Made by a program: the position numbers and the translations under genes
In this document: positions 4,369-23,950 of the stretch, piece after piece
Layout: every line of letters begins with the position of its first letter
Position numbering within the stretch: position 1 is the stretch's first letter
Notes under the pieces: model-generated
The model's database searches: none
The model's input: only the letters and a program-made list of their open reading frames with translations
What the model was told of the DNA's origin: nothing
From: a virus
Lineage: Duplodnaviria; Caudoviricetes
DNA: 24,375 nucleotides
Reading direction: 5' to 3' (one strand)
Virus record (IMG/VR): IMGVR_UViG_3300021425_000188
Span: 1 to 24,375 of that record

Positions 4369-4644
4369 ATGAAAATTGTCGATATTACAATTCACGAAGA
4401 CGATATTGAAGAATGGAAAGCAAGTAAAGATACTTGCAAGAAAACCACTCCTATAGGTGCTAGTGCTGAAGCAAGTTGTAAAGCACAGGGTCTTCGTGCT
4501 AGAGATACTAAAAAAACACAGAAAATAGGCAGGCGCAGGGTTAAGCTAGGTGGCACTAGAAGGAAAAGCACTACATATGGCGGACCTGTAAAAGATTACG
4601 GTTCAAGAGATAGATTACCAGGTGGTCGCGGAAGACTCAGATAA
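4369..4644 (+). CDS. Basic putative internal head protein
   Basis: Acidic leader MKIVDITIHEDDIEE followed by a K/R/G-rich body with two Cys; TAAATA at 4358-4363. Confidence 0.75.
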   Translation: MKIVDITIHEDDIEEWKASKDTCKKTTPIGASAEASCKAQGLRARDTKKTQKIGRRRVKLGGTRRKSTTYGGPVKDYGSRDRLPGGRGRLR

Positions 4645-5363
4645 TGAGAAGTAAAGAATTTGTATTCGAGTCTGATCTTAAACTGCTTTATCACTCTATG
4701 ACTTATGAAAAGGCTGTAAGAATACTGATCAATAACGGTCTTGAAGTAAATGTAGAAGATGCAATTCCTGTTGCAAAAGATAGTTTTATAAGTTTTAGTA
4801 GATCACCTAGCAATCAATATGTTACTGAATTCTTAGACAGAGCAGTTACTTTTGAAATTAATCAAGAAAAATTAGAACAAGCACTGCAAACTAGACAAGG
4901 TAAGTCACCAGGTAGGTCCTATAAATTAGGGCCATTTACACTAGGACAAGTTTTCGACGATGAATTAGAAACTAGGTTAGACCTAGAAGGCAAACAACCT
5001 GTTATTGGTCTTAAAAAATTTGTTAGAGCAGTTCATGTATGGCCAACAGAAGCAATACAAACTGTTGCAAAATACGACGAAACAGGATATATACCTGACA
5101 GGTACAAAGACGGCACTGAACTTACAAAACAGAATTATGTAAAATACATAGATGTTGTAAGGAAACATTCACAGCCTGATTTAGAATTATTAGATCAAGT
5201 GTTAGAAATGGCAGAGAAAAGAGGCATAAGAACTCATGTGTACTTGAATAGAAAAGACTTCTTAGGAAAACGTATTCATAAAAGTCTAAGACCAAACGGT
5301 AGAACTCTAAGGCAAATTTTTAAAGCAGCATTAGCAATTGTAACAAGAGGTAGAATAAGATGA
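4644..5363 (+). CDS. Putative ADP-ribosyltransferase-like internal virion protein
   Basis: Motif order LYH ... ISFSRS ... VTFEIN ... ELE fits the ART fold strands (H/R, S-x-S, E-x-E); N-terminus MRSKEFVFE; CDS certain, function inferred. Confidence 0.55.
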   Translation: MRSKEFVFESDLKLLYHSMTYEKAVRILINNGLEVNVEDAIPVAKDSFISFSRSPSNQYVTEFLDRAVTFEINQEKLEQALQTRQGKSPGRSYKLGPFTLGQVFDDELETRLDLEGKQPVIGLKKFVRAVHVWPTEAIQTVAKYDETGYIPDRYKDGTELTKQNYVKYIDVVRKHSQPDLELLDQVLEMAEKRGIRTHVYLNRKDFLGKRIHKSLRPNGRTLRQIFKAALAIVTRGRIR

Positions 5364-6028
5364 GATTCAGTGAAATTATAACCGAGGACTGGTGGAATCC
5401 TTTTACCTGGGGTAAAAAAGATACTTATCCGCAAGACGCAAGAGACGAAATGGATGCAGCAGTAGCATCTTCTACAGCAAGAGCAGCGCAAAGTTCCGGA
5501 CGTGGCGACGGCGATGCCGAAGTAGCAAGGCGTAACGCACCTCCAATGCCCAAGCAACGACCAGACGTTGTAACAGCAGCTATTGCTAGAGCTGCTAAAG
5601 AGTTAGGTATAGCACCTAGCGCTCTGCGTGCTATTGTAAAAACGGAGTCTAACTTTGATTCAACCGCAGTGTCGCCAAGCGGGAATCACTACGGCGCTAC
5701 ACAAATACACAAGAATCACTTTCCAATGGGAGGTATGACTGCTGATGAATTTAGAGCAGCACCACTAGATGAGCAAATAGCAGTATATCCTCAGTGGGCA
5801 AAAAGCTATCGTATGCTAGAGAAGTTTCCTAACATAGGAACATATCAGCCGGCAGTACAAGCAGCTATAATGCAGGCATTTCAGTTTTCTCCAAACGGTT
5901 CTAAATGGCAGAAAGCATTTCACAATCAAAACTATGACGTGCCTGTTACAAAGAGTCAGCAAGCAGGTAAGCTAGGCACAACTAGTATACGTGATATGTA
6001 CACTTATTTTGTAGGATTGGGGTTGTAG
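5360..6028 (+). CDS. SLT-domain lytic transglycosylase, probably virion-associated
   Basis: AAKELGIAPSALRAIVKTESNFDSTAVS...YGATQI carries the SLT catalytic ES motif and a GxxQ motif; N-terminus MRFSEIITE; ATGA coupling. Confidence 0.8.
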   Translation: MRFSEIITEDWWNPFTWGKKDTYPQDARDEMDAAVASSTARAAQSSGRGDGDAEVARRNAPPMPKQRPDVVTAAIARAAKELGIAPSALRAIVKTESNFDSTAVSPSGNHYGATQIHKNHFPMGGMTADEFRAAPLDEQIAVYPQWAKSYRMLEKFPNIGTYQPAVQAAIMQAFQFSPNGSKWQKAFHNQNYDVPVTKSQQAGKLGTTSIRDMYTYFVGLGL

Positions 6029-6051
6029 ATTTCTTTAACCTAGTATATTAT
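6023..6051 (+). promoter_or_regulatory. Possible sigma70 promoter for the HNH gene
   Basis: TTGTAG-N17-TATTAT. Confidence 0.4.
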
Positions 6052-6088
6052 AAAAGCATTAACAATTTCTATTTAGGAAGCATGACAA

Positions 6089-6598
6089 ATGCCTGACGTT
6101 CTAGTGTTAAATGCCGATGCAAGACCGCTGTCATATCTACCGTTGAGTTTGGTAGAATGGAAAGAAGCTATCACATATATGTGTTTAGATAAGTGCGCAG
6201 TTTTAGAATGGTATGATGACTGGATTGTAAGTTCCCCAAGTTGGGAAACTCGTGTGCCTGCTGTGATCATGTTAAAAGATATGTATAAGCGAAAAACACA
6301 TCCTAGATTTTCAAAAAACAATGTGTACCTACGTGATATGAACACTTGCCAATACTGCGGGAATGAATTTTCAAAACATGATCTTACATTAGATCATGTA
6401 TTGCCAATATCTAAAGGTGGTAAAACAAATTGGACTAATATTGTAACTGCATGTAAAAGCTGCAATGTTAAAAAAGGTAGTCGGACTGATGTCAGTCCGT
6501 TACGACGGCCGTATAGGCCAGATTATTATGAGCTAGTACACAAAAGGAAACAATTAAAATTTGAACTGCGGCAAGAAAGTTGGAAGCAGTACATATAA
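6089..6598 (+). CDS. HNH endonuclease (McrA-like/HNH_5 type)
   Basis: VLVLNA N-terminus; RD..TCQYCG; TLDHVLP.SKGG; WTNIVTACKSCNVKKG. Confidence 0.92.
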   Translation: MPDVLVLNADARPLSYLPLSLVEWKEAITYMCLDKCAVLEWYDDWIVSSPSWETRVPAVIMLKDMYKRKTHPRFSKNNVYLRDMNTCQYCGNEFSKHDLTLDHVLPISKGGKTNWTNIVTACKSCNVKKGSRTDVSPLRRPYRPDYYELVHKRKQLKFELRQESWKQYI

Positions 6599-6624
6599 AA
6601 AAAGGAGCACTAGGCTCCTTTTTT
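6597..6624. terminator. Bidirectional intrinsic terminator
   Basis: aaaaaaGGAGC-actag-GCTCCtttttt between convergent genes. Confidence 0.85.
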
Positions 6625-6759
6625 ATTCTTATTATCCGTATCAGTAATACTTATACCGTGATAGTCTAGTATATGTTGATAACGAGCTAGCGCTCTACGT
6701 GCTCTAGCTTCGCCTACAGCTTTCATTGCGTTGCCAACGCCTTTCCAAAATGAGTTCAT
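6610..6759 (-). CDS. Microprotein (49 aa), DUF1127/YjiS-like
   Basis: Manual translation MNSFWKGVGNAMKAVGEARARRALARYQHILDYHGISITDTDNKNKKGA; TAATG coupling; RARRALAR..HIL..HGI loosely resembles the DUF1127 R.RR.L..L..H.L.DIG pattern. Confidence 0.65.
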   Translation of the reverse strand: MNSFWKGVGNAMKAVGEARARRALARYQHILDYHGISITDTDNKNKKGA

Positions 6760-6929
6760 TAGTTATGGTTCCATACATCTAGTGTTGTTTTATAATATTT
6801 TTGAAAAGGAGCTTCTCCCCTATTCAACATTTGCTGCCTATTCTCAAGATCATAAATGTCATGAGCATTAGCCAAATAACGTTCTTCGTCAGAACGTCTA
6901 TCAAAAAGAGACTTAATAAATTTACGCAT
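6759..6929 (-). CDS. Microprotein (56 aa), DUF3563-like
   Basis: MRKFIKSLFDRRSDEERYLANAHDIYDLENRQQMLNRGEAPFQKYYKTTLDVWNHN; E.YLA.A.DIYDLE.R pattern characteristic of DUF3563. Confidence 0.75.
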   Translation of the reverse strand: MRKFIKSLFDRRSDEERYLANAHDIYDLENRQQMLNRGEAPFQKYYKTTLDVWNHN

Positions 6930-7026
6930 CGTTGTCAGTTCCGATTATTGTGCCATGAAAATTTACTTCCCAAGGCATTTCAAATAGGGTTAAAAATTTT
7001 TTTATTTTTTGATGTATAATTTTCAT
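6922..7026 (-). CDS. Microprotein (34 aa)
   Basis: MKIIHQKIKKFLTLFEMPWEVNFHGTIIGTDNDA; TAATG coupling upstream and 8-nt overlap with the next start, filling the gap exactly. Confidence 0.55.
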   Translation of the reverse strand: MKIIHQKIKKFLTLFEMPWEVNFHGTIIGTDNDA

Positions 7027-7184
7027 TACTTTTTAATCCTATCACGAATTCCACGAATAGCAGTATCACGTGGAATGCCATTTTGCATCAAACTACGAAT
7101 TTCTCTGCCATATTCGAACGCTACATATTGGTCAAGGGCAGCGTCTCTTGCTCTTTTTTCGAAGAGCCGTCCTATGTTTAACAT
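7026..7184 (-). CDS. Microprotein (52 aa)
   Basis: MLNIGRLFEKRARDAALDQYVAFEYGREIRSLMQNGIPRDTAIRGIRDRIKK; AAGGA SD. Confidence 0.7.
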   Translation of the reverse strand: MLNIGRLFEKRARDAALDQYVAFEYGREIRSLMQNGIPRDTAIRGIRDRIKK

Positions 7185-7249
7185 CTATTAAGTCCTTTTT
7201 TGTAAGTTTAGTAGTAAAATCTAGAGAAAGAAAAAGTTTTTACTAACTC

Positions 7250-7325
7250 TATTTACATCAACTATAACATAAAAAAGGGGCTTTAATAGCCCCTTTTCAT
7301 GCAAACGATCTTTGCGTTACGTGCA
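7250..7325 (-). promoter_or_regulatory. Promoter region of microprotein operon: LysR-type dyad, extended -10, TAAATA
   Basis: TGC-N7-GCA (T-N11-A) at 7313-7325; TGT-TATAGT -10 at 7261-7266; TAAATA at 7250-7255. Confidence 0.45.
7271..7297. terminator. Intrinsic terminator downstream of the lipase gene
   Basis: aaaaGGGGCT-ttaat-AGCCCCtttt with a U6 tail on the - strand. Confidence 0.8.
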
Positions 7326-7343
7326 TAAGTTACAGTAATATTA

Positions 7344-8090
7344 CTAATTTGCTTTGCAGTGCTTTGCGTATAGGCTACAAGTGTGGTCGTTTATCATATC
7401 CATTTTGTTGCCCATTAAGCCATTCCAACGATCTATGAGTTTTTTTACAAAGTCTACTTTTACTACAAGACCATCGGAATTTATATATTTTTCAGTACCT
7501 GCATGTTTGAAGCCCATAAACGCTGGCGGAACCATCGTAACAATATCATTATTGTTTACCCAACGATAATGCGTTTTGTCTTTCATGCTGTCTGCAAATA
7601 CTGCGTCGCCTGCTCTTGGAGATCCAAAAGTATGTAGTTCAAGCGGATCTGGCAATGCGTCATCATCCCACGCTCTACTTGCCATAATAGTAATCATTGC
7701 AGCACCTAAGCTGTGTCCAGTAAACCATAAGTTTCTTTTATCCTCATTGAGAGCAATTAAATCTTCGTAAATCATCTCCCAAATGTCGTCAGCTTCACGT
7801 TTGAAGCCTTTATGTACTTTACCTACTGTTTCGCTGTCTTCTTTTCTTGCATCTAAATCTGCAAGCATATCATTAAAATTACCTGGTTCAGTACCACGGC
7901 ATGCAAACACTACATCTGAATCACTTTCAAATCTATATGCTTGTGCCCCGTCTCTGTTATAATATTCAAAAGTATGAAAACCAAATTCTTTAACTAATTT
8001 TTCTGCTTCTTCCGGTTCTTGATAAACAAACTCAGATAGTTTCGCAAGAACGTGGCCTCTTCCCGAGACCCGTAGTGATTTCATGTGCAT
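7344..8090 (-). CDS. Class 3 lipase (alpha/beta hydrolase); start revised to ATG 8090
   Basis: CRGTE, VHKGF, TGHSLGAA nucleophile elbow, TFGSPR.G, NNDIV, C-terminal DH; GGAGG SD and TAAATA at 8115-8120. Confidence 0.9.
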   Translation of the reverse strand: MHMKSLRVSGRGHVLAKLSEFVYQEPEEAEKLVKEFGFHTFEYYNRDGAQAYRFESDSDVVFACRGTEPGNFNDMLADLDARKEDSETVGKVHKGFKREADDIWEMIYEDLIALNEDKRNLWFTGHSLGAAMITIMASRAWDDDALPDPLELHTFGSPRAGDAVFADSMKDKTHYRWVNNNDIVTMVPPAFMGFKHAGTEKYINSDGLVVKVDFVKKLIDRWNGLMGNKMDMINDHTCSLYAKHCKAN

Positions 8091-8114
8091 TGGGTTGCCC
8101 TCCATTCCCAAAAC

Positions 8115-8138
8115 TATTTATGTAACAGCAGCTAAATA
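8115..8138. promoter_or_regulatory. Divergent pair of late promoters
   Basis: caTAAATAg on - strand (8115-8120) and gcTAAATAa on + strand (8133-8138). Confidence 0.65.
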
Positions 8139-8143
8139 AATGC

Positions 8144-8404
8144 ATGCGTAAAAAGACAAGATCCATCTTAGAAGAATTACAAAGTTATAGAAGTCAAGAT
8201 CCTGACTCTATGATAGAAGCATCAGCTGCAAACATTTTAGAAAGTGTTATAAATCTTATGTCTCGTATAGACAATCAGTATGGCACCGAAGTAGGCGTAA
8301 AACTAGAAAAAAAGTTTATCAATGCTTTGAAAACAGGTGACATTGAAAAATTTAATCGCAGTCTAAAACGCACAATAAGGGAAAGCAAAAATGAAAATCC
8401 TTAA
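8144..8404 (+). CDS. Hypothetical helical protein (86 aa)
   Basis: ORF starts 5 nt after TAAATA and overlaps the next gene by 14 nt. Confidence 0.8.
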   Translation: MRKKTRSILEELQSYRSQDPDSMIEASAANILESVINLMSRIDNQYGTEVGVKLEKKFINALKTGDIEKFNRSLKRTIRESKNENP

Positions 8405-9131
8405 TGAAGGCGGAAACATATTCAAAGATCCTGAAGGTAGAATATTAACACAGAGAATCAATAAAGCAGATGTATTACCTACTTTACAATGGCTAGAGCA
8501 AATTACAGGTTTACCACATGAAGATTTTATGTTAGGATCTACTGGACGTAAAGAAACCAGTGGAGACTTAGATGTGGCTGTAAATCAGCAAGATGTTTCA
8601 AAAGATGAACTTGTGAATAAATTAGCAGCTTGGTGTAAAAAGAATGGTAAAGATCCAAAAACATGGATTCGTAAGACAGGTATCAGTGTGCATTTTCTTA
8701 CACCTATTCTTGGTGATGAGTCAAATGGCTATGTACAAACTGATTTGATGTTTGGCGATCCAGAATGGATGAAATGGAGTATGGCAGGTTCTAACGAAGG
8801 TACAGCTTATTCTGGAGCCGACAGGCAAATACTGATGAGCAGTATTGCTACTGCGCAAGGAATGAAATGGAGTTCTCAAAACGGCTTGATTGATAGAGAG
8901 TCTAATCAAGTGATATCTAAAAATCCGCAAGAAATTGCGCAACACCTAATTGGTCCAAATGCACAAGCAGATGACTTAGAAAGTGTAGAAACAATTCTTA
9001 CAAAACTACGTAACCGTATAGATTACAGAGAATTAGTAGCCGATGCAGAAGCAACTTTTGCAAAAAAAGGTATCCAATTACCTGAAAGCAAAGATATAAC
9101 TCGTTTGCGTGAACTAGCCGGAGCTATCTAA
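8391..9131 (+). CDS. Pol beta/Pol X-superfamily nucleotidyltransferase
   Basis: LGSTGRKETSGDLDVAV (GS-x8-DxD), third acid in VQTDLMF, Pol X thumb-like A.AQGMKWS..GL.D; N-terminus MKILNEGG. Confidence 0.75.
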   Translation: MKILNEGGNIFKDPEGRILTQRINKADVLPTLQWLEQITGLPHEDFMLGSTGRKETSGDLDVAVNQQDVSKDELVNKLAAWCKKNGKDPKTWIRKTGISVHFLTPILGDESNGYVQTDLMFGDPEWMKWSMAGSNEGTAYSGADRQILMSSIATAQGMKWSSQNGLIDRESNQVISKNPQEIAQHLIGPNAQADDLESVETILTKLRNRIDYRELVADAEATFAKKGIQLPESKDITRLRELAGAI

Positions 9132-10324
9132 TGAAAGTTATAGAACTATTTGAAGATGTTAAGTTTACCTTGAATGAAGGTGCAGAAGCACGTATACAAC
9201 ACGCAGAAGATTTAATTTTTTGGGAAGGGTCTAAAGGTGCACTTCGTGCAGTTGATGCGCTAAAAGGTTTAGAACAAGGCAGGCACAAAGATGTTACTAT
9301 CAAGTGGGACGGATCGCCGGCTATAATTTTTGGACGCAATGAAAACGGTGATTTTGTTTTAACAGATAAAAGTGGCTTTGCAGCTAAAGGTTACGACGGT
9401 AAGCCCACAAGCGCTGCCGCAGTAAATGCAATGTTTAGTAGACGTAACCCAAATAACGCAGAAGCACAAAAAATATTTGCAAGTAAGATGTCTGCTCTTT
9501 ATAACCTTTATGAAAAAAGTTTTCCTCAGCATGTAATAGGATATTTAAAAGGTGACCTACTGTATTTTGATACTCCACCTCAACAAAATGGTAACTTTGT
9601 ATTCACGCCTAATATTGTTACCTACTCTATTGATGCATCGAGTGAAATAGGAAAAAACATAGCAGCTAGTAAAAGTGGAGTAGTGGTGCACAGGTTTATG
9701 ACACCCGACGGTAAAGATTCTACGGTGCCTCAAAGTATACTCAATCAAATGAATACAGGTGAAGTACTGTATTTTCCTCCTGTAACTGTTGAACGTGCAC
9801 CTAATGTCAACGACAGTCATGTAAATGATGCAAATAGTGGTATTACACAATATGGTGCACAAATCGACGATATGTTGAATACCGAACGATTAACAAGATT
9901 AAAGATGAAAGACCTGCCTATGATTTTCTATACCTATCTTAATAGAAAAGTAGACAGCGGTCTTACAAATCTAGGATCTGATTTTGTAAATTGGCTAGGA
10001 ACTAGCAAAGTGTCACCTGCTAAACAGCAGCGTATTCAACAGTATATTACTGAGCATCAAAGTGCGTTTAGTGGTATGTGGAAAATTGTAGATCAAATTA
10101 TGCAAATTAAAAATGATATAATCAAGCAGTTTGACTCACATAATACAGCTATTAAAGCGACAATTGGTGATGCTTCAGGCGGCGAAGGATATGTGTTAGA
10201 TCATAGTCAAGGTGCTATAAAATTAGTTGATAGATCGGGTTTCACTGCTGCTAATAGGCAAGTGCAAAGAGAAGCAAAGAGCATTGAGCTAAATCAAATC
10301 CAAAAGCTGAGCGGCATAAAATGA
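9131..10324 (+). CDS. Ligase-like covalent nucleotidyltransferase (DUF6267-like)
   Basis: HAEDL; motif I TIKWDG; motif III-like KGDLLY; motif IV GEGYVL; motif V IKLVDR; TAATG coupling. Confidence 0.75.
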   Translation: MKVIELFEDVKFTLNEGAEARIQHAEDLIFWEGSKGALRAVDALKGLEQGRHKDVTIKWDGSPAIIFGRNENGDFVLTDKSGFAAKGYDGKPTSAAAVNAMFSRRNPNNAEAQKIFASKMSALYNLYEKSFPQHVIGYLKGDLLYFDTPPQQNGNFVFTPNIVTYSIDASSEIGKNIAASKSGVVVHRFMTPDGKDSTVPQSILNQMNTGEVLYFPPVTVERAPNVNDSHVNDANSGITQYGAQIDDMLNTERLTRLKMKDLPMIFYTYLNRKVDSGLTNLGSDFVNWLGTSKVSPAKQQRIQQYITEHQSAFSGMWKIVDQIMQIKNDIIKQFDSHNTAIKATIGDASGGEGYVLDHSQGAIKLVDRSGFTAANRQVQREAKSIELNQIQKLSGIK

Positions 10325-11202
10325 TGGAGTTCATTAAAGAAATACACGAAGCACGAATGGTGCGAAATGAAAGTGATCAAAAATCACTTACATATTCCGA
10401 CTGCTGTGAAAAATTGTTTTTGACTGTATGTATTATTGAAGTAATGCGATACGATAATGAAAATGATAATTTTCTTAATAGGTATTTAGATAAAACTTTA
10501 GACTACAACGGTTATAAAATGTTTAAAATTGCAAATACTGACCTTTACAATTTCATATATTTTGTAACTGGCGATAACGCAGCAATGGATAAGTTGAAAG
10601 ATCCAGGTGCAGCTAAAAAAGTTAGACGTAATACACATTTACCTATCGCAACACTTGCTGGACATCTAACACAAATTAAAAATAATCCAAGAGATCCTAA
10701 AATAAATTCATACAGTTTATTTTATGAACTACAAAAAAGTCTTGCGGCACAGATATCAGATTATAGTTTTATACGTAGATTACTAGCAAACTATACAAAA
10801 ATTTCTGTGCAACAGCGCAAAGAAGTAGTAACCAAACTTTTATTTGCTGCTCGAGCAAAACTACGCTCTAGTGATATTATAGATGACTTTTCTCGATGGG
10901 TAGGCAAAAATCGTTTAGAAGTAAGTTCTGTAAGGGATACAGAAATTGAAATAAGCCAAGCTGACTTTGATGCAGGATCTACTAAAGATATGGCATACTA
11001 CAGAATGCTTGTAGGCAGCGACAACATGGTATTAGCTCACAAATTTGTTGAACGTTCATTCAAAAACACTAATTCTCCACTGAATTATATACAAAGTTAT
11101 TTGCCTATTATTAAGATGATTCATGACTTTATTCAAGCGGGACCAACAGCTATACAGCAGCTTAAAGTTCTACACAGTAGAATTAAAAAATCTAACAAAT
11201 AA
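10321..11202 (+). CDS. Hypothetical helical protein (293 aa), putative internal head protein
   Basis: Coupled to the upstream gene; N-terminus MEFIKEIHEA. Confidence 0.8.
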   Translation: MMEFIKEIHEARMVRNESDQKSLTYSDCCEKLFLTVCIIEVMRYDNENDNFLNRYLDKTLDYNGYKMFKIANTDLYNFIYFVTGDNAAMDKLKDPGAAKKVRRNTHLPIATLAGHLTQIKNNPRDPKINSYSLFYELQKSLAAQISDYSFIRRLLANYTKISVQQRKEVVTKLLFAARAKLRSSDIIDDFSRWVGKNRLEVSSVRDTEIEISQADFDAGSTKDMAYYRMLVGSDNMVLAHKFVERSFKNTNSPLNYIQSYLPIIKMIHDFIQAGPTAIQQLKVLHSRIKKSNK

Positions 11203-12381: not shown

Positions 12382-12639
12382 ATGCAAGAAGCAAAACAAA
12401 TTTGGGGACGAAAAGGTCAAACTTTAGTACGTAAATATAGATGTAGTGGTGGAAAGCGACACGGACGCATTGTTTCTTCTCCCACAGCATGCCATGCTGC
12501 TCCTAACGTGGCACGAAGTGCACGAATGAAAGTTACTAGAGCAAGACTAGGCAAGGTAATGGCAAGACGAGCAAAGCGCACAAAACGCATTAATCCAGCA
12601 AGTAAAAGATTAGCACAAGGGTTGAATAAAAGAAGATGA
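12382..12639 (+). CDS. Highly basic putative DNA-binding core protein
   Basis: 85 aa, R/K-rich with a single acidic residue (E3), two Cys. Confidence 0.75.
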   Translation: MQEAKQIWGRKGQTLVRKYRCSGGKRHGRIVSSPTACHAAPNVARSARMKVTRARLGKVMARRAKRTKRINPASKRLAQGLNKRR

Positions 12640-12938
12640 AAGTTATAGATCTATTAAAAGAGCAAGAAGATGTGCTACAAGAGCAAGACCCTGTACTAGC
12701 AGCAAACACAGCTTTGCAGCAGGCGAGGGAGGCAGTGCGAGTCAAGCGTGATGAAATACGTAAAGCACAAACAGAAGAATTGCCAGAACTGCAACGCCAA
12801 GAAAGAAAGGCTGCACAGGCAGTGATAGCAGCACAAAATTCAAAAGCTGTTCAGCCGGCACAAACAACACCTACCACTGCGCCGACAGCACAAACTATGC
12901 CTACTGCTACTACACCAACCACAGGCGTAGCCACATGA
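12636..12938 (+). CDS. Hypothetical coiled-coil protein with T/P/A-rich tail
   Basis: MKVIDLLKEQE N-terminus; ATGA coupling; TTPT/TAPT/TMPT tail. Confidence 0.75.
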   Translation: MKVIDLLKEQEDVLQEQDPVLAANTALQQAREAVRVKRDEIRKAQTEELPELQRQERKAAQAVIAAQNSKAVQPAQTTPTTAPTAQTMPTATTPTTGVAT

Positions 12939-13168
12939 AGATCAACGAACTAATCCTTAGTTACGAGATTCAACGATCAAACGAAGAACAAGATCTATTG
13001 AATAAACTTGGATTGCCAGTTCCTATCGACAGTTTGACAGAACGTGAAGAAGTCATATTTAACACTCTAGAACGTAAAAATCTAGTAAATAAAATAAAAG
13101 AAGACGGACATATACTGGTAAAGCGAAATGAATACTGTCATACCCCATTTAAAAGAGCTCCTGAATAG
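12935..13168 (+). CDS. Hypothetical protein (77 aa, possible winged helix)
   Basis: MKINELI N-terminus; LTEREE..FNTLERKNLV.K pattern. Confidence 0.7.
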   Translation: MKINELILSYEIQRSNEEQDLLNKLGLPVPIDSLTEREEVIFNTLERKNLVNKIKEDGHILVKRNEYCHTPFKRAPE

Positions 13169-13565: not shown

Positions 13566-14504
13566 ATGAACATAAAAGATATGAATAAAAAGCCAACTTT
13601 AACAAATTTAAAAGACAATCTTGTTGAAAGATTTAATATTGATGTTGAGTTAGACGAGTATTCTTTGAATCAACTACTAGCAATGCAGTCTACTCTACAA
13701 GAAAAAGTAAGTAAACTTGTAGAAGGAAATAATTTTGATTATACACAGTCAGATGTATATCAAAAGAATCAACTGTTTTTAGAAATACTCGAAGCTGAGA
13801 TAATAGATCGCAAAGCTTTAATAGAAGGCGCTGAAGACAGAGCTGGTATAGTAATGGCATCTAGAGACATGGTAAACAAAGTTACTAACTGGATGGAAGA
13901 CACAGCAGAAGCACAGAGTAAAGCTATGCTAGAACTAGCTGACGACATCCGTGATGAAATGGGAGCCGACACAGCACAACAATACCAAGACGTTGTAAAA
14001 CCTGCACTAGAAAGTTTATATGCTGCAATGGAACAATCTAGAGAACAGCTAGTTGCAAGTGTTGGTATACTTACAGGCGAAGGCGGCCCAGTAGAGCCAA
14101 TGGGCGCACCTGATATGGACATGGGTGCTGACATAGAAGGCCCAGGTGATGAAGATATACCTACAGACGATGAGTTTGGTGCTGCTGCTGCCGCAGCCGG
14201 TGGGGATGAGCCAGCAGACCGCACACGTAGAGAATCAGTTGATCTTTCACGTAGACTTGGCACTATAATGAGCGAAGGCTACGGCAAAAAGAAGAAGAAA
14301 AAAGCATATGAAGGTTACGGAAATCCTGACCCATATGGCCTTAGACCAATTATAAAAAAAGCTCAAAGTCAACCTGCAATGAGAGCAAAAATGTTATACA
14401 TGCTTGAAATGATGTTGAAAAAGCACCCAGAAGCTGAGAAACAAATTAACCTTGCAATTAAGGCTATAACAGATATGGGTATCAGCGGAAAGCAGTTCAA
14501 ATAA
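13566..14504 (+). CDS. Acidic coiled-coil protein, prohead core/scaffold-like
   Basis: TAAATA at 13536-13541; very acidic and helical; several possible Glu cleavage sites (LVEG, LIEG, RRES, MSEG, AYEG); acidic G/D/P linker. Confidence 0.65.
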   Translation: MNIKDMNKKPTLTNLKDNLVERFNIDVELDEYSLNQLLAMQSTLQEKVSKLVEGNNFDYTQSDVYQKNQLFLEILEAEIIDRKALIEGAEDRAGIVMASRDMVNKVTNWMEDTAEAQSKAMLELADDIRDEMGADTAQQYQDVVKPALESLYAAMEQSREQLVASVGILTGEGGPVEPMGAPDMDMGADIEGPGDEDIPTDDEFGAAAAAAGGDEPADRTRRESVDLSRRLGTIMSEGYGKKKKKKAYEGYGNPDPYGLRPIIKKAQSQPAMRAKMLYMLEMMLKKHPEAEKQINLAIKAITDMGISGKQFK

Positions 14505-14893
14505 TGCGCTTTGCAGAAATCCTGCGAGAAAATACAGATCTACTCTATCAAATTCTTGTGACTGTGCAAGGCAACGCCGATGCTGATGAAAAACCTGTGT
14601 ATCTTCACTTTGATGGAATTAAAAATCCTAAGCCTAATGTGATAAATTTAGATTTAAATCGTTTAATGACGAATGCAGGAGCGCAACAGTTTACTTTTGA
14701 TACATTTAACAACGCATACGATCAAGACAACCGAATTCAAAAAATTGTTAAACAATTTGATAAGGACGGAATAGAATTGAAAACAGATCAGCAAATGACT
14801 TTGCCTGCTGATCAAGAAAAGCGCATGCAGGATTATGATGCAAAAGATGATCCAGCAGCAGCACAAGCAGCAGCTAAACAACTAGAAGACTAA
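14504..14893 (+). CDS. Hypothetical protein, putative internal head protein
   Basis: MRFAEILREN N-terminus; TAATG coupling. Confidence 0.75.
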   Translation: MRFAEILRENTDLLYQILVTVQGNADADEKPVYLHFDGIKNPKPNVINLDLNRLMTNAGAQQFTFDTFNNAYDQDNRIQKIVKQFDKDGIELKTDQQMTLPADQEKRMQDYDAKDDPAAAQAAAKQLED

Positions 14894-14933: not shown

Positions 14934-15275
14934 ATGACTGAACGTAACCACGACGATATTGTAGCAGAGATTAAACTTCTTATTGAAGAAAAAGTCAAGC
15001 CGGCAGTTGCTGGCCACGGAGGCAATATTGAATTTTTAGAATTCAATGATGGTAGACTTTTGCTAGAGCTAGGCGGTGCATGTAGCGGATGTGCTGGCAG
15101 CACTATGACTCTTAAAATGGGCATTGAAAATATGTTAATGCATTATATCCCAGAAATTAAAGAAGTAGATGCACAAGACGATCCTAATAGTAATGTTGAT
15201 CCATTTTATTCTAGTATGGATTTTTATAATTGGGACGAAGACGAAATAGATGACACTAATAAAGAACAAGTTTGA
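14934..15275 (+). CDS. nifU: NifU/NfuA C-terminal-domain Fe-S cluster carrier
   Basis: VKPAVAGHGGNIEF...L.LGGACSGC..STMTLKMGIENML.HYIPE, the hallmark NifU_C CxxC. Confidence 0.92.
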   Translation: MTERNHDDIVAEIKLLIEEKVKPAVAGHGGNIEFLEFNDGRLLLELGGACSGCAGSTMTLKMGIENMLMHYIPEIKEVDAQDDPNSNVDPFYSSMDFYNWDEDEIDDTNKEQV

Positions 15276-20537: not shown

Positions 20538-22850
20538 ATGAATCGAGATATAATGATTGTCAAGCGTGATGGTTCTCGAGAACCACTCGACATCGACAAA
20601 ATTCACTTCGTTGTAGAAGAAGCATGTAATGGACTAGCTGGTGTCAGTAGTAGTCAAATTGAAATGAATGCAAACATACAATTCTATAACGGTATGTCGA
20701 CTGGAGAGATACAAGAAGTACTTGTACGAAGCGCTAGCGATCTTATAAATCTTGAAACTCCAAACTATCAATATGCAGCAGCACGACTACTATCTTACGG
20801 CTTGTACAAGCAAGTGTTTGGCGGATACCAAACTATTACACTAAGTCAAATCATTGAGAAAAATATTTTCCGTGGTGTATACGATCGCGAAATTTTGTCA
20901 ATGTACAGTCAAGAAGAGATTGATAAATTAGATTCTTATATCCATCACAAACGTGATGAAAACTTTACATATGCAGGACTAAGACAAGTAGTTGATAAGT
21001 ACCTAGTACAGGATCGATCCTCTGGGGAAATTTTTGAAACGCCACAGTTTATGTACATGATGATTGCAGCAACACTATTTGCTGATTATCCTAAAGCAGA
21101 GCGCTTACAATATGTAAAGAAGTACTATGATGCAATTTCTCTATTCAAAGTTAACATTCCTACACCCGTTATGGCAGGGGTTAGAACGCCAATACGTCAA
21201 TTTGCTAGCTGTGTGCTTGTGGATAGTGATGACACTCTCAACAGCATTTTCTCTAGTGATATGGCTATTGGCCGCTATACCGCTCAACGTGCTGGTATCG
21301 GGATTAATGCTGGTAGAATTCGTGGAGTCAACAGTAAAATCCGCGGCGGCGAAGTTGCGCACACTGGGGTGGTTCCGTTCTTAAAAAAGTTTGAATCTAC
21401 TGTACGATGTTGTACACAGAACGGAGTACGAGGAGGTAGTGCTACTGTTCATTTCCCGTTGTGGCATCAAGAGATTGAAGATATACTTGTGTTGAAAAAC
21501 AACAAAGGCACAGAAGACAGTCGTGTAAGAAAATTGGACTATAGTATACAACTCAACAGGACAATGTACACTAGGCTGCTGAACGGAGAAGATATTACAT
21601 TATTTTCACCACATGATGTTCCAGGGCTCTACGAAGCTTACTTTGGCGATCCTGACGAGTTTGAAGAACTTTATCAGCAATACGAGAACAGTCGTTCTAT
21701 TCCGAAAAAGCGTGTTCCTGCAATGGAACTGTTTAGTGAGTTAATTAAGGAACGAGCTGAGACCGGACGTATCTACATTATGAATGTAGATCACGCAAAC
21801 ACACATAGTTCTTTTAAAGACAAAGTTTATATGAGTAACTTATGTCAAGAGATTACATTGCCTACGACACCTTTAGATCATATCGATGATAAAGATGGCG
21901 AAATTGCACTTTGTATTTTAAGCGCTATAAACGTTGGGCTTATCAAAGAACTAGACGATCTTGAAGATCTTTGCGATCTTGCAGTAAGAGCTTTGGAGCA
22001 GATTATTGATTACCAAAAGTACCCAGTACAAGCAGCAGAAATTTCCACTAAAGCACGTCGCTCACTAGGTATTGGTTATGTAGGGCTTGCCCACTTCCTT
22101 GCAAAAAATAAAGTTAGTTATGAAGATAATGAAGCAGCAGTGCTTGTACACAAACTTACCGAAAGTTTCCAGTACTATCTGCTTAAGGCATCAAACAAAC
22201 TTGCACAAGAACGTGGCCAGTGTGAATATTTCGAACGCACAAAATATGCAGATAACGTGCTTCCGATTGATACTTACAAACAAGACGTCGACGAAGCAAT
22301 CGGCGGCGTAGATCTACGACACGATTGGGATGCACTACGTGAAGATATTGCAACATGGGGATTGCGGCATTCTACACTGAGTGCTCAAATGCCAAGTGAA
22401 AGTTCAAGTGTAGTGTGTAATGCAACAAATGGCATCGAACCGCCACGTGGATATTTAAGCGTTAAGAAAAGTAAAAAAGGGCCATTAAAGCAAATTGTGC
22501 CACAGTATCAATCACTAAAGCAACACTATACTTTGCTTTGGGATATGAAAGGTAACGAGGGTTACATAAAGATTGTTGCTGCTATGCAGAAGTTTTTTGA
22601 TCAAGCAATTTCTGCAAATTGGAGTTATAATCCAATACAGTATCAGGACAATGAAGTACCAATGAGTGTAATGATGCAAGACTTGTTAACTACCTACAAG
22701 CTAGGTTGGAAGACAAGCTACTATCAAAACACTTATGATTACAAAGTTGATCCGTCTGAGATTACAGATGAAGAACCGAAAGTCGAAGAAAATATAATTT
22801 TAGAAGATCTTCCAGAGGAAGACGAAATGTGTGAGGCATGCGCAATATGA
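20538..22850 (+). CDS. nrdA: Class Ia ribonucleotide reductase alpha subunit
   Basis: ATP cone (IVKRDG), PTPVM, SCVL, NLCQEI, MPSESSS..NATNGIEP, YY pair, C-terminal CEAC. Confidence 0.98.
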   Translation: MNRDIMIVKRDGSREPLDIDKIHFVVEEACNGLAGVSSSQIEMNANIQFYNGMSTGEIQEVLVRSASDLINLETPNYQYAAARLLSYGLYKQVFGGYQTITLSQIIEKNIFRGVYDREILSMYSQEEIDKLDSYIHHKRDENFTYAGLRQVVDKYLVQDRSSGEIFETPQFMYMMIAATLFADYPKAERLQYVKKYYDAISLFKVNIPTPVMAGVRTPIRQFASCVLVDSDDTLNSIFSSDMAIGRYTAQRAGIGINAGRIRGVNSKIRGGEVAHTGVVPFLKKFESTVRCCTQNGVRGGSATVHFPLWHQEIEDILVLKNNKGTEDSRVRKLDYSIQLNRTMYTRLLNGEDITLFSPHDVPGLYEAYFGDPDEFEELYQQYENSRSIPKKRVPAMELFSELIKERAETGRIYIMNVDHANTHSSFKDKVYMSNLCQEITLPTTPLDHIDDKDGEIALCILSAINVGLIKELDDLEDLCDLAVRALEQIIDYQKYPVQAAEISTKARRSLGIGYVGLAHFLAKNKVSYEDNEAAVLVHKLTESFQYYLLKASNKLAQERGQCEYFERTKYADNVLPIDTYKQDVDEAIGGVDLRHDWDALREDIATWGLRHSTLSAQMPSESSSVVCNATNGIEPPRGYLSVKKSKKGPLKQIVPQYQSLKQHYTLLWDMKGNEGYIKIVAAMQKFFDQAISANWSYNPIQYQDNEVPMSVMMQDLLTTYKLGWKTSYYQNTYDYKVDPSEITDEEPKVEENIILEDLPEEDEMCEACAI

Positions 22851-23950
22851 GTAAAACCGTTTTTAATCAAGAGAAAGTTGATTTCACAAAACAAAATATG
22901 TTTTTTGGAGCTGAACAAAATACCCAGCGCTATGATGTATTTAAGTTTCCTGTGTTTGATAAACTTAACCAAACTATGCTTGGTTATTTTTGGAGACCTG
23001 AAGAAGTCAGTTTGCAAAAAGATCGAGCAGACTATGCAAACTTTAGGCCAGAGCAAAAACATATTTTTACAGCTAACCTAAAGTATCAAACTCTGCTAGA
23101 TAGTGTACAAGGTCGCGGACCATGTCTTAGCTTCTTGCCTCATGTTAGTATTCCTGAGCTAGAAGGCTGTATTGTGACTTGGGACTTTTTTGAAACTATT
23201 CACAGTCGCTCGTACACGCACATTATGAAAAATATCTACAGCGATCCAAGTGAAGTGCTAGACACAATCCTCGAAGATGATAAAATTATTGAACGTGCAG
23301 TATCAGTTACCAAAAACTACGATGCATTTAATGAAGCAAGTGATAATTGGTTCCATCACAAGAAAGGGTCTATGCATGAAGTTAAGAAAAAACTTTACTT
23401 GGCAATGATGAATGTAAACATCTTAGAAGGTTTGCGTTTCTATGTGTCTTTCGCATGTACTTTTGGTTTTGGTGAATTAAAGCTCATGGAAGGAAGTGCT
23501 AAGATTATTAGTCTTATTGCACGGGATGAGGCCCAGCACCTTGCATTAACTACGCATATTTTAAAACTTTGGGCTCAAGGCAAAGATGATCCAGAAATGG
23601 TAGACATCGCGAAAGAGTGCGAAGAAGAAGTTTATGATATGTGGCGAGAATGTGTAGACGAGGAAAAAGCATGGGCAACCTATTTGTTTAAGGACGGCTC
23701 AATGATCGGTCTTAATCAAACGCTGTTACATCAGTATGTAGAATACATTGCTAATCGCAGACTCAAGGCACTTGGATACAATGCAATTTTCGATGCACCA
23801 GTTAACACAAATCCGCTACCGTGGACACAGCATTGGTTAAGCTCAAACACACTACAAGTAGCGCCGCAGGAGACAGAAGTAGAATCATATATTGTAGGCG
23901 GTATTAAACAAGACGTAAATAATGACATGTTAAAAGGATTTAAATTATAA
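22847..23950 (+). CDS. nrdB: Class Ia ribonucleotide reductase beta subunit
   Basis: FWRPEEV, LDSVQ, ETIHSRSY (radical Tyr), EGLRFY, RDEAQH, APQETE..SY; ATGA overlap with the nrdA stop. Confidence 0.97.
   Translation: MSKTVFNQEKVDFTKQNMFFGAEQNTQRYDVFKFPVFDKLNQTMLGYFWRPEEVSLQKDRADYANFRPEQKHIFTANLKYQTLLDSVQGRGPCLSFLPHVSIPELEGCIVTWDFFETIHSRSYTHIMKNIYSDPSEVLDTILEDDKIIERAVSVTKNYDAFNEASDNWFHHKKGSMHEVKKKLYLAMMNVNILEGLRFYVSFACTFGFGELKLMEGSAKIISLIARDEAQHLALTTHILKLWAQGKDDPEMVDIAKECEEEVYDMWRECVDEEKAWATYLFKDGSMIGLNQTLLHQYVEYIANRRLKALGYNAIFDAPVNTNPLPWTQHWLSSNTLQVAPQETEVESYIVGGIKQDVNNDMLKGFKL

Follow-up and report, generated by a model that had tools for sequence, protein, structure and literature searches.

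What does a phage gain from carrying, next to each other in one run of overlapping genes, an enzyme that resembles a stripped-down repair polymerase and another that resembles a ligase? The question is raised by positions 8144-11202 of IMGVR_UViG_3300021425_000188, a 24,375-base linear virus record from an uncultured T4-like phage (the window, meaning the whole stretch of DNA that was analysed; CheckV completeness 11%), among whose phage-type genes profile matches place ribonucleotide reductase and an exonuclease. Four open reading frames (ORFs), overlapping successively by 14, 1 and 4 nucleotides (nt), make up a real, conserved four-gene unit behind a TAAATA box:

8133..8138, + strand: TAAATA box kept at related loci, likely serving the unit as a T4-type late promoter
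8144..8404, + strand: ORF a (ORF 8144), 86 aa
8391..9131, + strand: ORF nt (ORF 8391), 246 aa, minimal Pol X-like nucleotidyltransferase
9131..10324, + strand: ORF lig (ORF 9131), 397 aa, DUF6267, predicted ligase-type covalent nucleotidyltransferase
10321..11202, + strand: ORF c (ORF 10321), 293 aa

The answer proposed here is that the products of ORF 8391 and ORF 9131 would act as a pair that fills and seals nicks or short gaps in double-stranded nucleic acid, the most likely substrate being phage DNA that host nucleases have cut. This reading is held tentatively, its chance being put somewhat below even.

ORF 8391 had no match in Pfam, PHROG or NCBIfam, and sequence searches of the PDB, with the single sequence or with a profile, gave nothing meaningful. 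The Pfam palm profile did not match the window's ORF, matched 2 of 121 family members weakly and scored above its cut-off in relative P0475; one family member matched PF14791 weakly (E 0.009). Homologs are plentiful (854 among 1,474 candidates; 1,315 among 50%-identity representatives), and the GS..DxD..D motif to which an earlier, sequence-only reading of this DNA had pointed is present, with Gly-Ser at residues 49-50 followed by three aspartates:

8565..8567, + strand: Asp59 of ORF 8391, catalytic
8571..8573, + strand: Asp61 of ORF 8391, catalytic
8742..8744, + strand: Asp118 of ORF 8391, catalytic

Besides these three, no column of the 121-sequence alignment is invariant; among representative domains that were aligned, they are found in 145/145, 145/145 and 150/150, respectively. 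A structural model of residues 7-246, built from the 121 sequences (mean predicted local distance difference test score, pLDDT, 93), was compared with 48,161 PDB representative chains. Ranks 1-9 were all family X polymerases, with 153-170 residues aligned: model residues 5-194 superimposed on residues 142-335 of Pol beta (Z 10.0, root-mean-square deviation [rmsd] 3.5, 162 aligned), followed by Leishmania Pol beta (Z 9.4), Pol lambda (9.3), TdT (9.1), Thermus PolX (8.8), Pol X of African swine fever virus (ASFV; Z 8.4, rmsd 3.6, 153 of 176 residues) and Pol mu (7.8). Such matches cover both palm and thumb (model residues ∼5-194), whereas terminal uridylyltransferases, poly(A) polymerases, CD-NTases, MenT1 and CCA enzymes reached Z 7.1 at most and mostly matched the palm only (80-100 residues). 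In a second structural comparison, all 50 matches listed were Pol beta, lambda or mu. The alignment begins at Pol beta residue ∼140, that is, the N-terminal lyase and fingers (HhH) domains are missing, which marks the minimal type since ASFV Pol X lacks them as well; ∼45 extra C-terminal helical residues lie outside every structural match. Judged by its model, ORF 8391 is a minimal Pol X by fold (palm plus thumb), as the sequence-only reading had supposed. An assignment to RlaP was considered and rejected: PF10127 did not match in the window (in the same scan, controls matched in 2 of 14 genomes) and was not among the families listed (25 of 30) for the 121 family members. Structures of RlaP and AbiEii are not among the 50 matches listed for the model, which is no argument against either.

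ORF 9131 belongs to DUF6267 (PF19782; E 1e-37, 130.5 bits versus a cut-off of 27, residues 22-379). The RNA_lig_T4_1 profile stayed under its cut-off (E 0.018), PF01068 gave no match listed at E ≤ 0.1, NCBIfam gave none, and PDB sequence searches, single or profile, gave nothing meaningful. The KxDG, EG and K motifs claimed for this protein are all there:

9302..9304, + strand: Lys58 of ORF 9131 (KxDG motif)
10184..10186, + strand: Glu352 of ORF 9131 (EG motif)
10220..10222, + strand: Lys364 of ORF 9131 (K motif)

In fused relatives (see below) they are invariant: K58, D60 and G61 in 50/50, E352 and G353 in 48/48 and K364 in 45/45. The model (mean pLDDT 87) was built from relative P0121, whose residue 39 is not that of the window. 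Foldseek's top 15 rows for it are all ligases, and when VIA-align was run on Foldseek's 1,000 best chains, all 50 matches listed were ligases or capping enzymes. The best was Naegleria RNA ligase (Z 7.3, rmsd 4.4, 182 aligned), followed by trypanosome REL1 (Z 6.1), T4 Rnl2 (Z 6.0) and T4 Rnl1, archaeal and fungal RNA ligases (∼6.0); these RNA ligase families are near-tied, with Z 6-7.3 to several. DNA ligases scored Z 5.8-4.7, that of ASFV 5.0. Motifs I (KxDG), III, IV (EG) and V (K) lie on the ligase fold, the assignment of which rests on the uniform match list together with the invariant motifs and agrees with the adenylation-type fold anticipated from the sequence. The modelled chain stops one helix after motif V, and 115 of 120 homologs end within 45 residues past it (108 of the 120 close homologs within 25), so ORF 9131 has no OB domain; in longer ligase fusions, a protease-type site follows motif V within 45 residues in 16 of 17 cases. 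A helical insert of ∼110 residues (228-336) separates motifs III and IV. ORF 9131 is thus predicted, from its model, to be a ligase-type covalent nucleotidyltransferase without an OB domain.

Such an enzyme raises the alternative that the substrate is RNA, in which case the polymerase would put back nucleotides at the 3′ end of a cleaved tRNA or another RNA, which the ligase would then rejoin, much as RlaP and an RNA ligase do. RNA ligases occupy ranks 1-12 for the ORF 9131 model, which, with the missing OB domain, fits RNA better than DNA; yet DNA ligases are within 1-1.5 Z of most of them. The divergent ligase-like partners described below match Pfam RNA_ligase weakly (E 6e-6, 6e-5 and 0.002). 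RlaP adds nucleoside monophosphates (NMPs) to RNA 3′ ends, according to PMC12776372, but ORF 8391 is not PF10127 and has a Pol X thumb, whereas RNA tailing enzymes match its palm only. Of 20 loci scanned, 5 (∼3 distinct; L017, L020, L071, L076 and L079, at about 5100-7700) have tRNA genes immediately before the unit, but no kinase or phosphatase for end healing is present in the unit. RNA repair ranks second, on the unlikely side.

That the two genes belong together was examined from both ends. With the polymerase as query (595 of 600 scanned were confirmed), 78 of the best 80 viral loci have room for a ligase gene, which lies downstream in 77 and is directly coupled in 65, and gene a lies upstream of the polymerase in 79/79; among 80 viral loci fetched with the ligase, the polymerase is found in 79 and gene c in 50 of the 56 with room for it. 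The loci being redundant and the closest kin of the window, these counts show clade-wide conservation only. In 52 of 149 representatives, moreover, polymerase and ligase are parts of a single chain, with either of the two first; placed on a FastTree tree, the fused state (51 of 137 tips) requires 28 changes (shuffles 41, minimum 33), so fusion or fission recurred. The predicted linkage of the two enzyme genes is therefore borne out, both by neighbourhood and by repeated fusion. Next to the polymerase gene, or three genes away from it, Atu_ph07, Phosso and PA5oct encode a divergent KxDG...EG...K protein, and divergent ligase-like domains are fused to the polymerase in P0483, P0494, P0500 and P0501. 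A broad ligase profile did not tie Atu_ph07 gp66 (E 6.3), Phosso 446 (E 46) or the four fused domains to DUF6267, and PA5oct gp228 was the sole divergent partner that it scored (E 5e-4 at Z 1000); kinship with DUF6267 is argued from motif order and from the weak RNA_ligase matches.

Several further arrangements were seen at these loci. A gene of ∼124 aa follows the ligase in 85 related loci, 77 times between ligase and ORF c (for example, L028:4876-5250), and is fused to the ligase in L009:3168-4724, L021:2835-4376 and L142:1241-2761; it has no Pfam match above cut-off and is missing from the window. A second, different Pol beta-type domain sits between polymerase and ligase, or in a ∼990-aa ligase-NT2-NT1 chain, at L051:8057-9178, L075:8765-9781, L112:590-3529 and L114:3918-6890. 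By eye, candidate restriction-endonuclease-like domains are fused to the polymerase or encoded beside ligase genes (P0397, P0420, P0436, P0475; L002:4641-5660; L150:3459-4793).

The fusions bear on a second alternative, namely that the genes travel together only as late head cargo, each enzyme transferring an NMP to a protein or small-molecule target of its own (host take-over or signal interference). Polymerase chains carry HIGH transferases (16 of 149 representatives have a HIGH-type domain), ART-PolyVal, Tad3, NUDIX and NT5C domains, and protease-type sites separate the fused domains at 31/31 internal polymerase and 30/32 internal ligase starts. Protein NMPylation has been predicted for other Pol beta domains of polyvalent proteins (PMC5512222), and cyanophage DUF6267 genes adjoin a virion-borne HIGH "cytidyltransferase". 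Nevertheless, the ligase is by far the commonest partner of the polymerase and remains its neighbour even where profiles no longer recognize either of them, and MenT1 and CD-NTases match the palm only, at Z 5-6. Independent targets are considered plainly unlikely. The long polymerase chains with Tad3 (anti-Thoeris), ART-PolyVal, NUDIX, Amidoligase_2, NT5C or HIGH domains (P0375, P0461, P0506, P0379, P0398, P0395 and P0401) suggest a wide set of head-cargo polyproteins.

A role as replicative DNA ligase was rejected for G001 and PA5oct, two of five records searched, which have a separate canonical DNA ligase and in which the DUF6267-type or ligase-like enzyme is therefore extra. PF01068 (DNA_ligase_A_M) had no match in Atu_ph07, S-WAM1 or Syn9, the latter two of which carry DUF6267. 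DUF6267 is widespread in aquatic T4-like phages (3,459 of 8,000 scored candidates). Some cyanophages have no DUF6267 at this locus. Two neighbouring cases were checked: ORF90 of S-SCSM1, called a "virion protein" and located next to NMNAT, does not belong to DUF6267, and in S-CREM2, judged by annotation, no candidate lies beside the cytidylyltransferase.

When would the pair be made? TAAATA is the core of T4 late promoters, and the four coupled genes described behind such a box were found as stated. At 79 of 81 distinct related loci the hexamer lies upstream of gene 1, as compared with 2/96, 4/89 and 0/58 for genes 2-4 (the search window being 60 nt longer where ORF calls were over-long); because the gene-1 region is intergenic and A+T-rich and the others are coding, this count stands for conservation and not for promoter activity. 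A single TAAATA proves nothing, as the hexamer alone is not rare: the window holds 16 on the plus and 12 on the minus strand, where shuffling expects 24 ± 5 per strand, and the full T4 late-promoter octamer occurs 0 times in it. Late transcription of the four genes from the box is likely, judging from its conservation. Divergent from the unit lies a class 3 lipase gene (PF01764, E 2e-23; 7344-8111, minus strand), with a TAAATA of its own at 8120 (minus strand), back to back with the box at 8133 (plus strand).

The second sign of a late, head-associated life is the N-termini, which the sequence-only reading had likened to those of T4 internal proteins:

8391..8408, + strand: six-residue ORF 8391 leader ending LxE; the predicted prohead-protease cut exposes Gly7 (8409-8411)
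9131..9178, + strand: 16-residue ORF 9131 leader with two candidate xxE cut sites; residues 1-20 have pLDDT < 50 (unfolded), and E16 is kept in 119 of 120 homologs

T4 gp21 cuts after L/I-X-E, and internal proteins carry targeting propeptides of 10-19 residues (PMC9026906). The likeness holds: [ILVMF]xE occurs within the first 16 residues in 118/120, 119/120 and 103/120 homologs of ORF 8391, ORF 9131 and ORF 10321 (the leader of which ends at Glu10), as compared with 6-16% of internal 16-residue windows. ORF 8144 has an early [ILVMF]xE too (79 of 81 homologs), as have 13 of the 29 window genes checked, so this leader-type site is common in the genome. Similar xxE-ending leaders at window positions 4369-6028, 12636-13168 and 14504-14893, including that of an SLT-domain protein at 5360, point to more candidate head cargo. 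What appears to be new here is the position of the site in the polymerase. Of 133 domain starts in 149 representatives, 118 begin, with Gly or Ser, at the residue that follows a protease-type site (33 lie within fusions) and 11 directly behind the initiator Met; the remaining 4 are placed otherwise, one being a false motif match. Atu_ph07 gp65, Phosso 447 and PA5oct gp231 begin Met-Gly or Met-Ser, and the Met-start state changes 10 times on the tree for 14 tips. As initiator Met is removed before Gly or Ser, the cleavage route and the Met route give the same free N-terminus. Thus, a fixed free N-terminus of the mature polymerase seems, from these starts, to be needed for folding or activity; residues 1-10 of the ORF 8391 model are ordered (pLDDT 88).

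Virion proteomes of distant relatives bear on delivery. In Atu_ph07, gene numbers of which were fixed by length and mass, gp65 is a polymerase homolog (tblastn E 5e-14), gp64 an ORF c homolog (E 3e-10), gp68 an ORF a homolog and gp66 ligase-like; virion mass spectrometry (Table S5 of PMC6102473, the part available) lists 10 peptides for gp65, 4 for gp64 and 5 for gp68, and does not list gp66. In the PA5oct record, gp231 (weak polymerase homolog, E 3e-3) is flagged as detected by electrospray ionization tandem mass spectrometry (ESI-MS/MS), whereas gp228 (ligase-like) and gp225 (ORF a homolog) are not. The DUF6267 match of S-SZBM1 is gene 141; in the available text and table of the S-SZBM1 paper, 139 and 140 are named and 141 is not. 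The S-PM2 and Syn9 records hold no virion notes. Presence in virions of distant homologs is thus 2/2 for the polymerase, 1/1 for ORF c, 1/2 for ORF a and 0/3 for ligase-fold proteins. The earlier claim of a capsid-delivered module therefore stands for the relatives of ORFs 8391, 10321 and 8144 and finds no such backing for the ligase. Non-detection is weak evidence, and a clear leader, which ORF 9131 has, is missing from two of the undetected ligase-like proteins; in the clade of the window, co-packaging of the ligase is plausible from its leader and the fusions. The leader is not what packages the polymerase homologs of Atu_ph07 and PA5oct, since both lack it.

The missing ligase invites a third explanation, in which the pair would repair nicked progeny DNA while it is being replicated or packaged, the polymerase in virions being a non-ejected leftover. 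The late promoter, the position of the locus after a helicase gene in cultured relatives and the three virion lists without ligase are in line with such quality control. A lack of PF01068 matches in Atu_ph07, S-WAM1 and Syn9 also fits, whereas the canonical ligases of G001 and PA5oct and the cyanophages that lack DUF6267 at this locus do not. The strictly conserved cut sites rather agree with internal proteins of the T4 type, which include many that are ejected (PMC9026906). This explanation is regarded as very improbable.

Fill-and-seal on damaged phage DNA, the preferred reading, would proceed as follows. Judging from conservation of the box, the four genes would be transcribed late. ORF 8391 would be loaded into the prohead and cut after LxE, giving the fixed Gly N-terminus, as the distant homologs in virion proteomes suggest. 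In the clade of the window the ligase would probably be loaded alike, having a leader and often forming one chain with the polymerase; in the cultured distant relatives, where it was undetected in virions, it would be made during infection. With its Pol X palm and thumb, the polymerase would then extend a 3′-OH by one or a few nucleotides copied from the template, and the ligase, going by its fold and motifs, would become adenylated on Lys58 and connect the ends. The Pol X type of thumb suggests template-guided filling within a duplex, and a ligase that lacks the OB domain suggests nick sealing of the RNA type.

A more specific version would reconcile these two folds. Certain Pol X enzymes can incorporate ribonucleotides, and ligases of the Rnl2 type require the 3′-OH side to be RNA. 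The unit could then encode a protease-activated, injected patch kit: a mini-Pol X zymogen that needs a free N-terminal Gly would be switched on in the head and, on entry, fill nuclease-made gaps in phage DNA with ribonucleotides, and the RNA-type ligase would seal the resulting RNA-3′-OH/DNA-5′-phosphate nick. Ribonucleotide patches in DNA would explain why a DNA-type polymerase fold is paired with an RNA-type ligase fold. In this specific form the idea is quite improbable.

Besides the leaning of ORF 9131 towards RNA, several observations weigh against fill-and-seal on DNA or against joint delivery. The aromatic-Thr-Gly turn, a feature of Pol X thumbs, is present in 0 of the 121 sequences, so that choice of nucleotide and sugar is not transferable from Pol X to ORF 8391. 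For ORF 9131, Foldseek gave no match at E ≤ 0.001, and all ligase Z scores are below 8, that is, middling. Ligase-fold proteins are absent from all three virion lists (Atu_ph07 gp66, PA5oct gp228, S-SZBM1_141), adjacent genes being detected, and the accessible Atu_ph07 list includes single-peptide RecA and ribonucleotide reductase, so some of its entries may be carry-over. The polymerase is also fused to unrelated cargo (the domains named above, Amidoligase_2 included), and its fusion to the ligase may therefore reflect shared packaging only. Finally, 248 cultured phage records, mostly cyanophages, match ORF 9131, and no cyanophage matched ORF 8391 (tblastn), so the ligase also occurs where no polymerase is detected.

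Set beside known systems, the unit most likely works like ASFV Pol X plus ligase or like RlaP plus RNA ligase, and by our comparison is a member of neither pair. ASFV Pol X and ASFV DNA ligase have a repair role. As in ASFV, a viral polymerase is paired with a ligase and cut down to palm and thumb; unlike in ASFV, ORF 8391 has a leader and the C-terminal helical extension, ORF 9131 has no OB domain and matches the ASFV ligase at just Z 5.0, and the genes are adjacent and often fused. Of the ASFV parallel drawn by the sequence-only reading, the minimal Pol X is upheld; the ligase, without the OB domain of ASFV-type DNA ligases, departs from it. RlaP (PF10127) and the ATP-grasp RNA ligases of jumbo phages offer the other precedent, a transferase of Pol beta fold that has a genetic link to an RNA-ligase-like enzyme (PMC7824862 and PMC12776372), and the same linkage holds here in 77/78 loci, if DUF6267 is counted as RNA-ligase-type. 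Differences are the lack of a PF10127 match, the Pol X-type thumb, a DUF6267 protein that is not Rnl1/Rnl2 by profile, the late promoter and the protease-type sites. Compared with nick-sealing RNA ligases (Naegleria Rnl, T4 Rnl2 and trypanosome REL1, its best structural matches, which likewise have no OB domain), ORF 9131 differs in its insert, an Asp at motif III, an invariant N-terminal His-x-Glu-Asp and Lys327, and almost no C-terminal domain. A short N-terminal propeptide ending L/I-X-E and late expression recall T4 IPI-III and Alt (PMC9026906), but here the cargo consists of two nucleotidyltransferases, some forms are polyproteins with internal sites, and leaderless homologs are still in virions. 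Polyvalent proteins are likewise multidomain phage cargo, and one relative is fused to ART-PolyVal; their Pol beta domain is a minimal four-strand form from conjugative elements (accessible part of PMC5512222, in the main text of which "ligase" as a whole word occurs 0 times).

In the literature searched, neither the name DUF6267 nor a description of a Pol X-like/DUF6267 pair was found; the supplement of PMC7824862, which possibly classes these phage proteins, was not covered. DUF6267 is common in aquatic T4-like phages, and its fold assignment, steady partner and predicted activation step make it testable, with cultured carriers in PA5oct, Atu_ph07 and Phosso (polymerase) and in Syn9, S-WAM1 and S-SZBM1 (DUF6267). 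If the pair does mend cut phage DNA or RNA on entry, it would be a general counter-defence, repairing damage instead of blocking one defence protein; if the ribonucleotide version applies, a DNA-type polymerase fold and an RNA-type ligase fold would serve a counter-defence that acts before phage gene expression in a large aquatic phage family. Both the small polymerase (240 residues) and the new ligase without an OB domain might, in addition, find use as reagents.

For the two partner genes, which had been counted into the repair module, no repair role is indicated; both are likely co-expressed virion proteins. ORF 8144, a conserved small protein and likely virion component, matches phrog_11854 "virion structural protein" (E 2e-11) and is probably a locus anchor rather than a repair enzyme. 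In four cultured jumbo phages (L001, L146, L147 and L148), its homologs lie no more than two genes after the primase/helicase gene; in two of the four, no polymerase homolog was found by tblastn. ORF 10321 has 751 homologs and no assignment in Pfam, PHROG or Atlas (features < 0.9; its poor model, pLDDT 0.37, gave no fold), and is likely conserved virion cargo. Elsewhere in the window, a NifU-like gene (PF01106, E 7e-25) lies at 14934-15275 and class Ia ribonucleotide reductase genes at 20538-23950.

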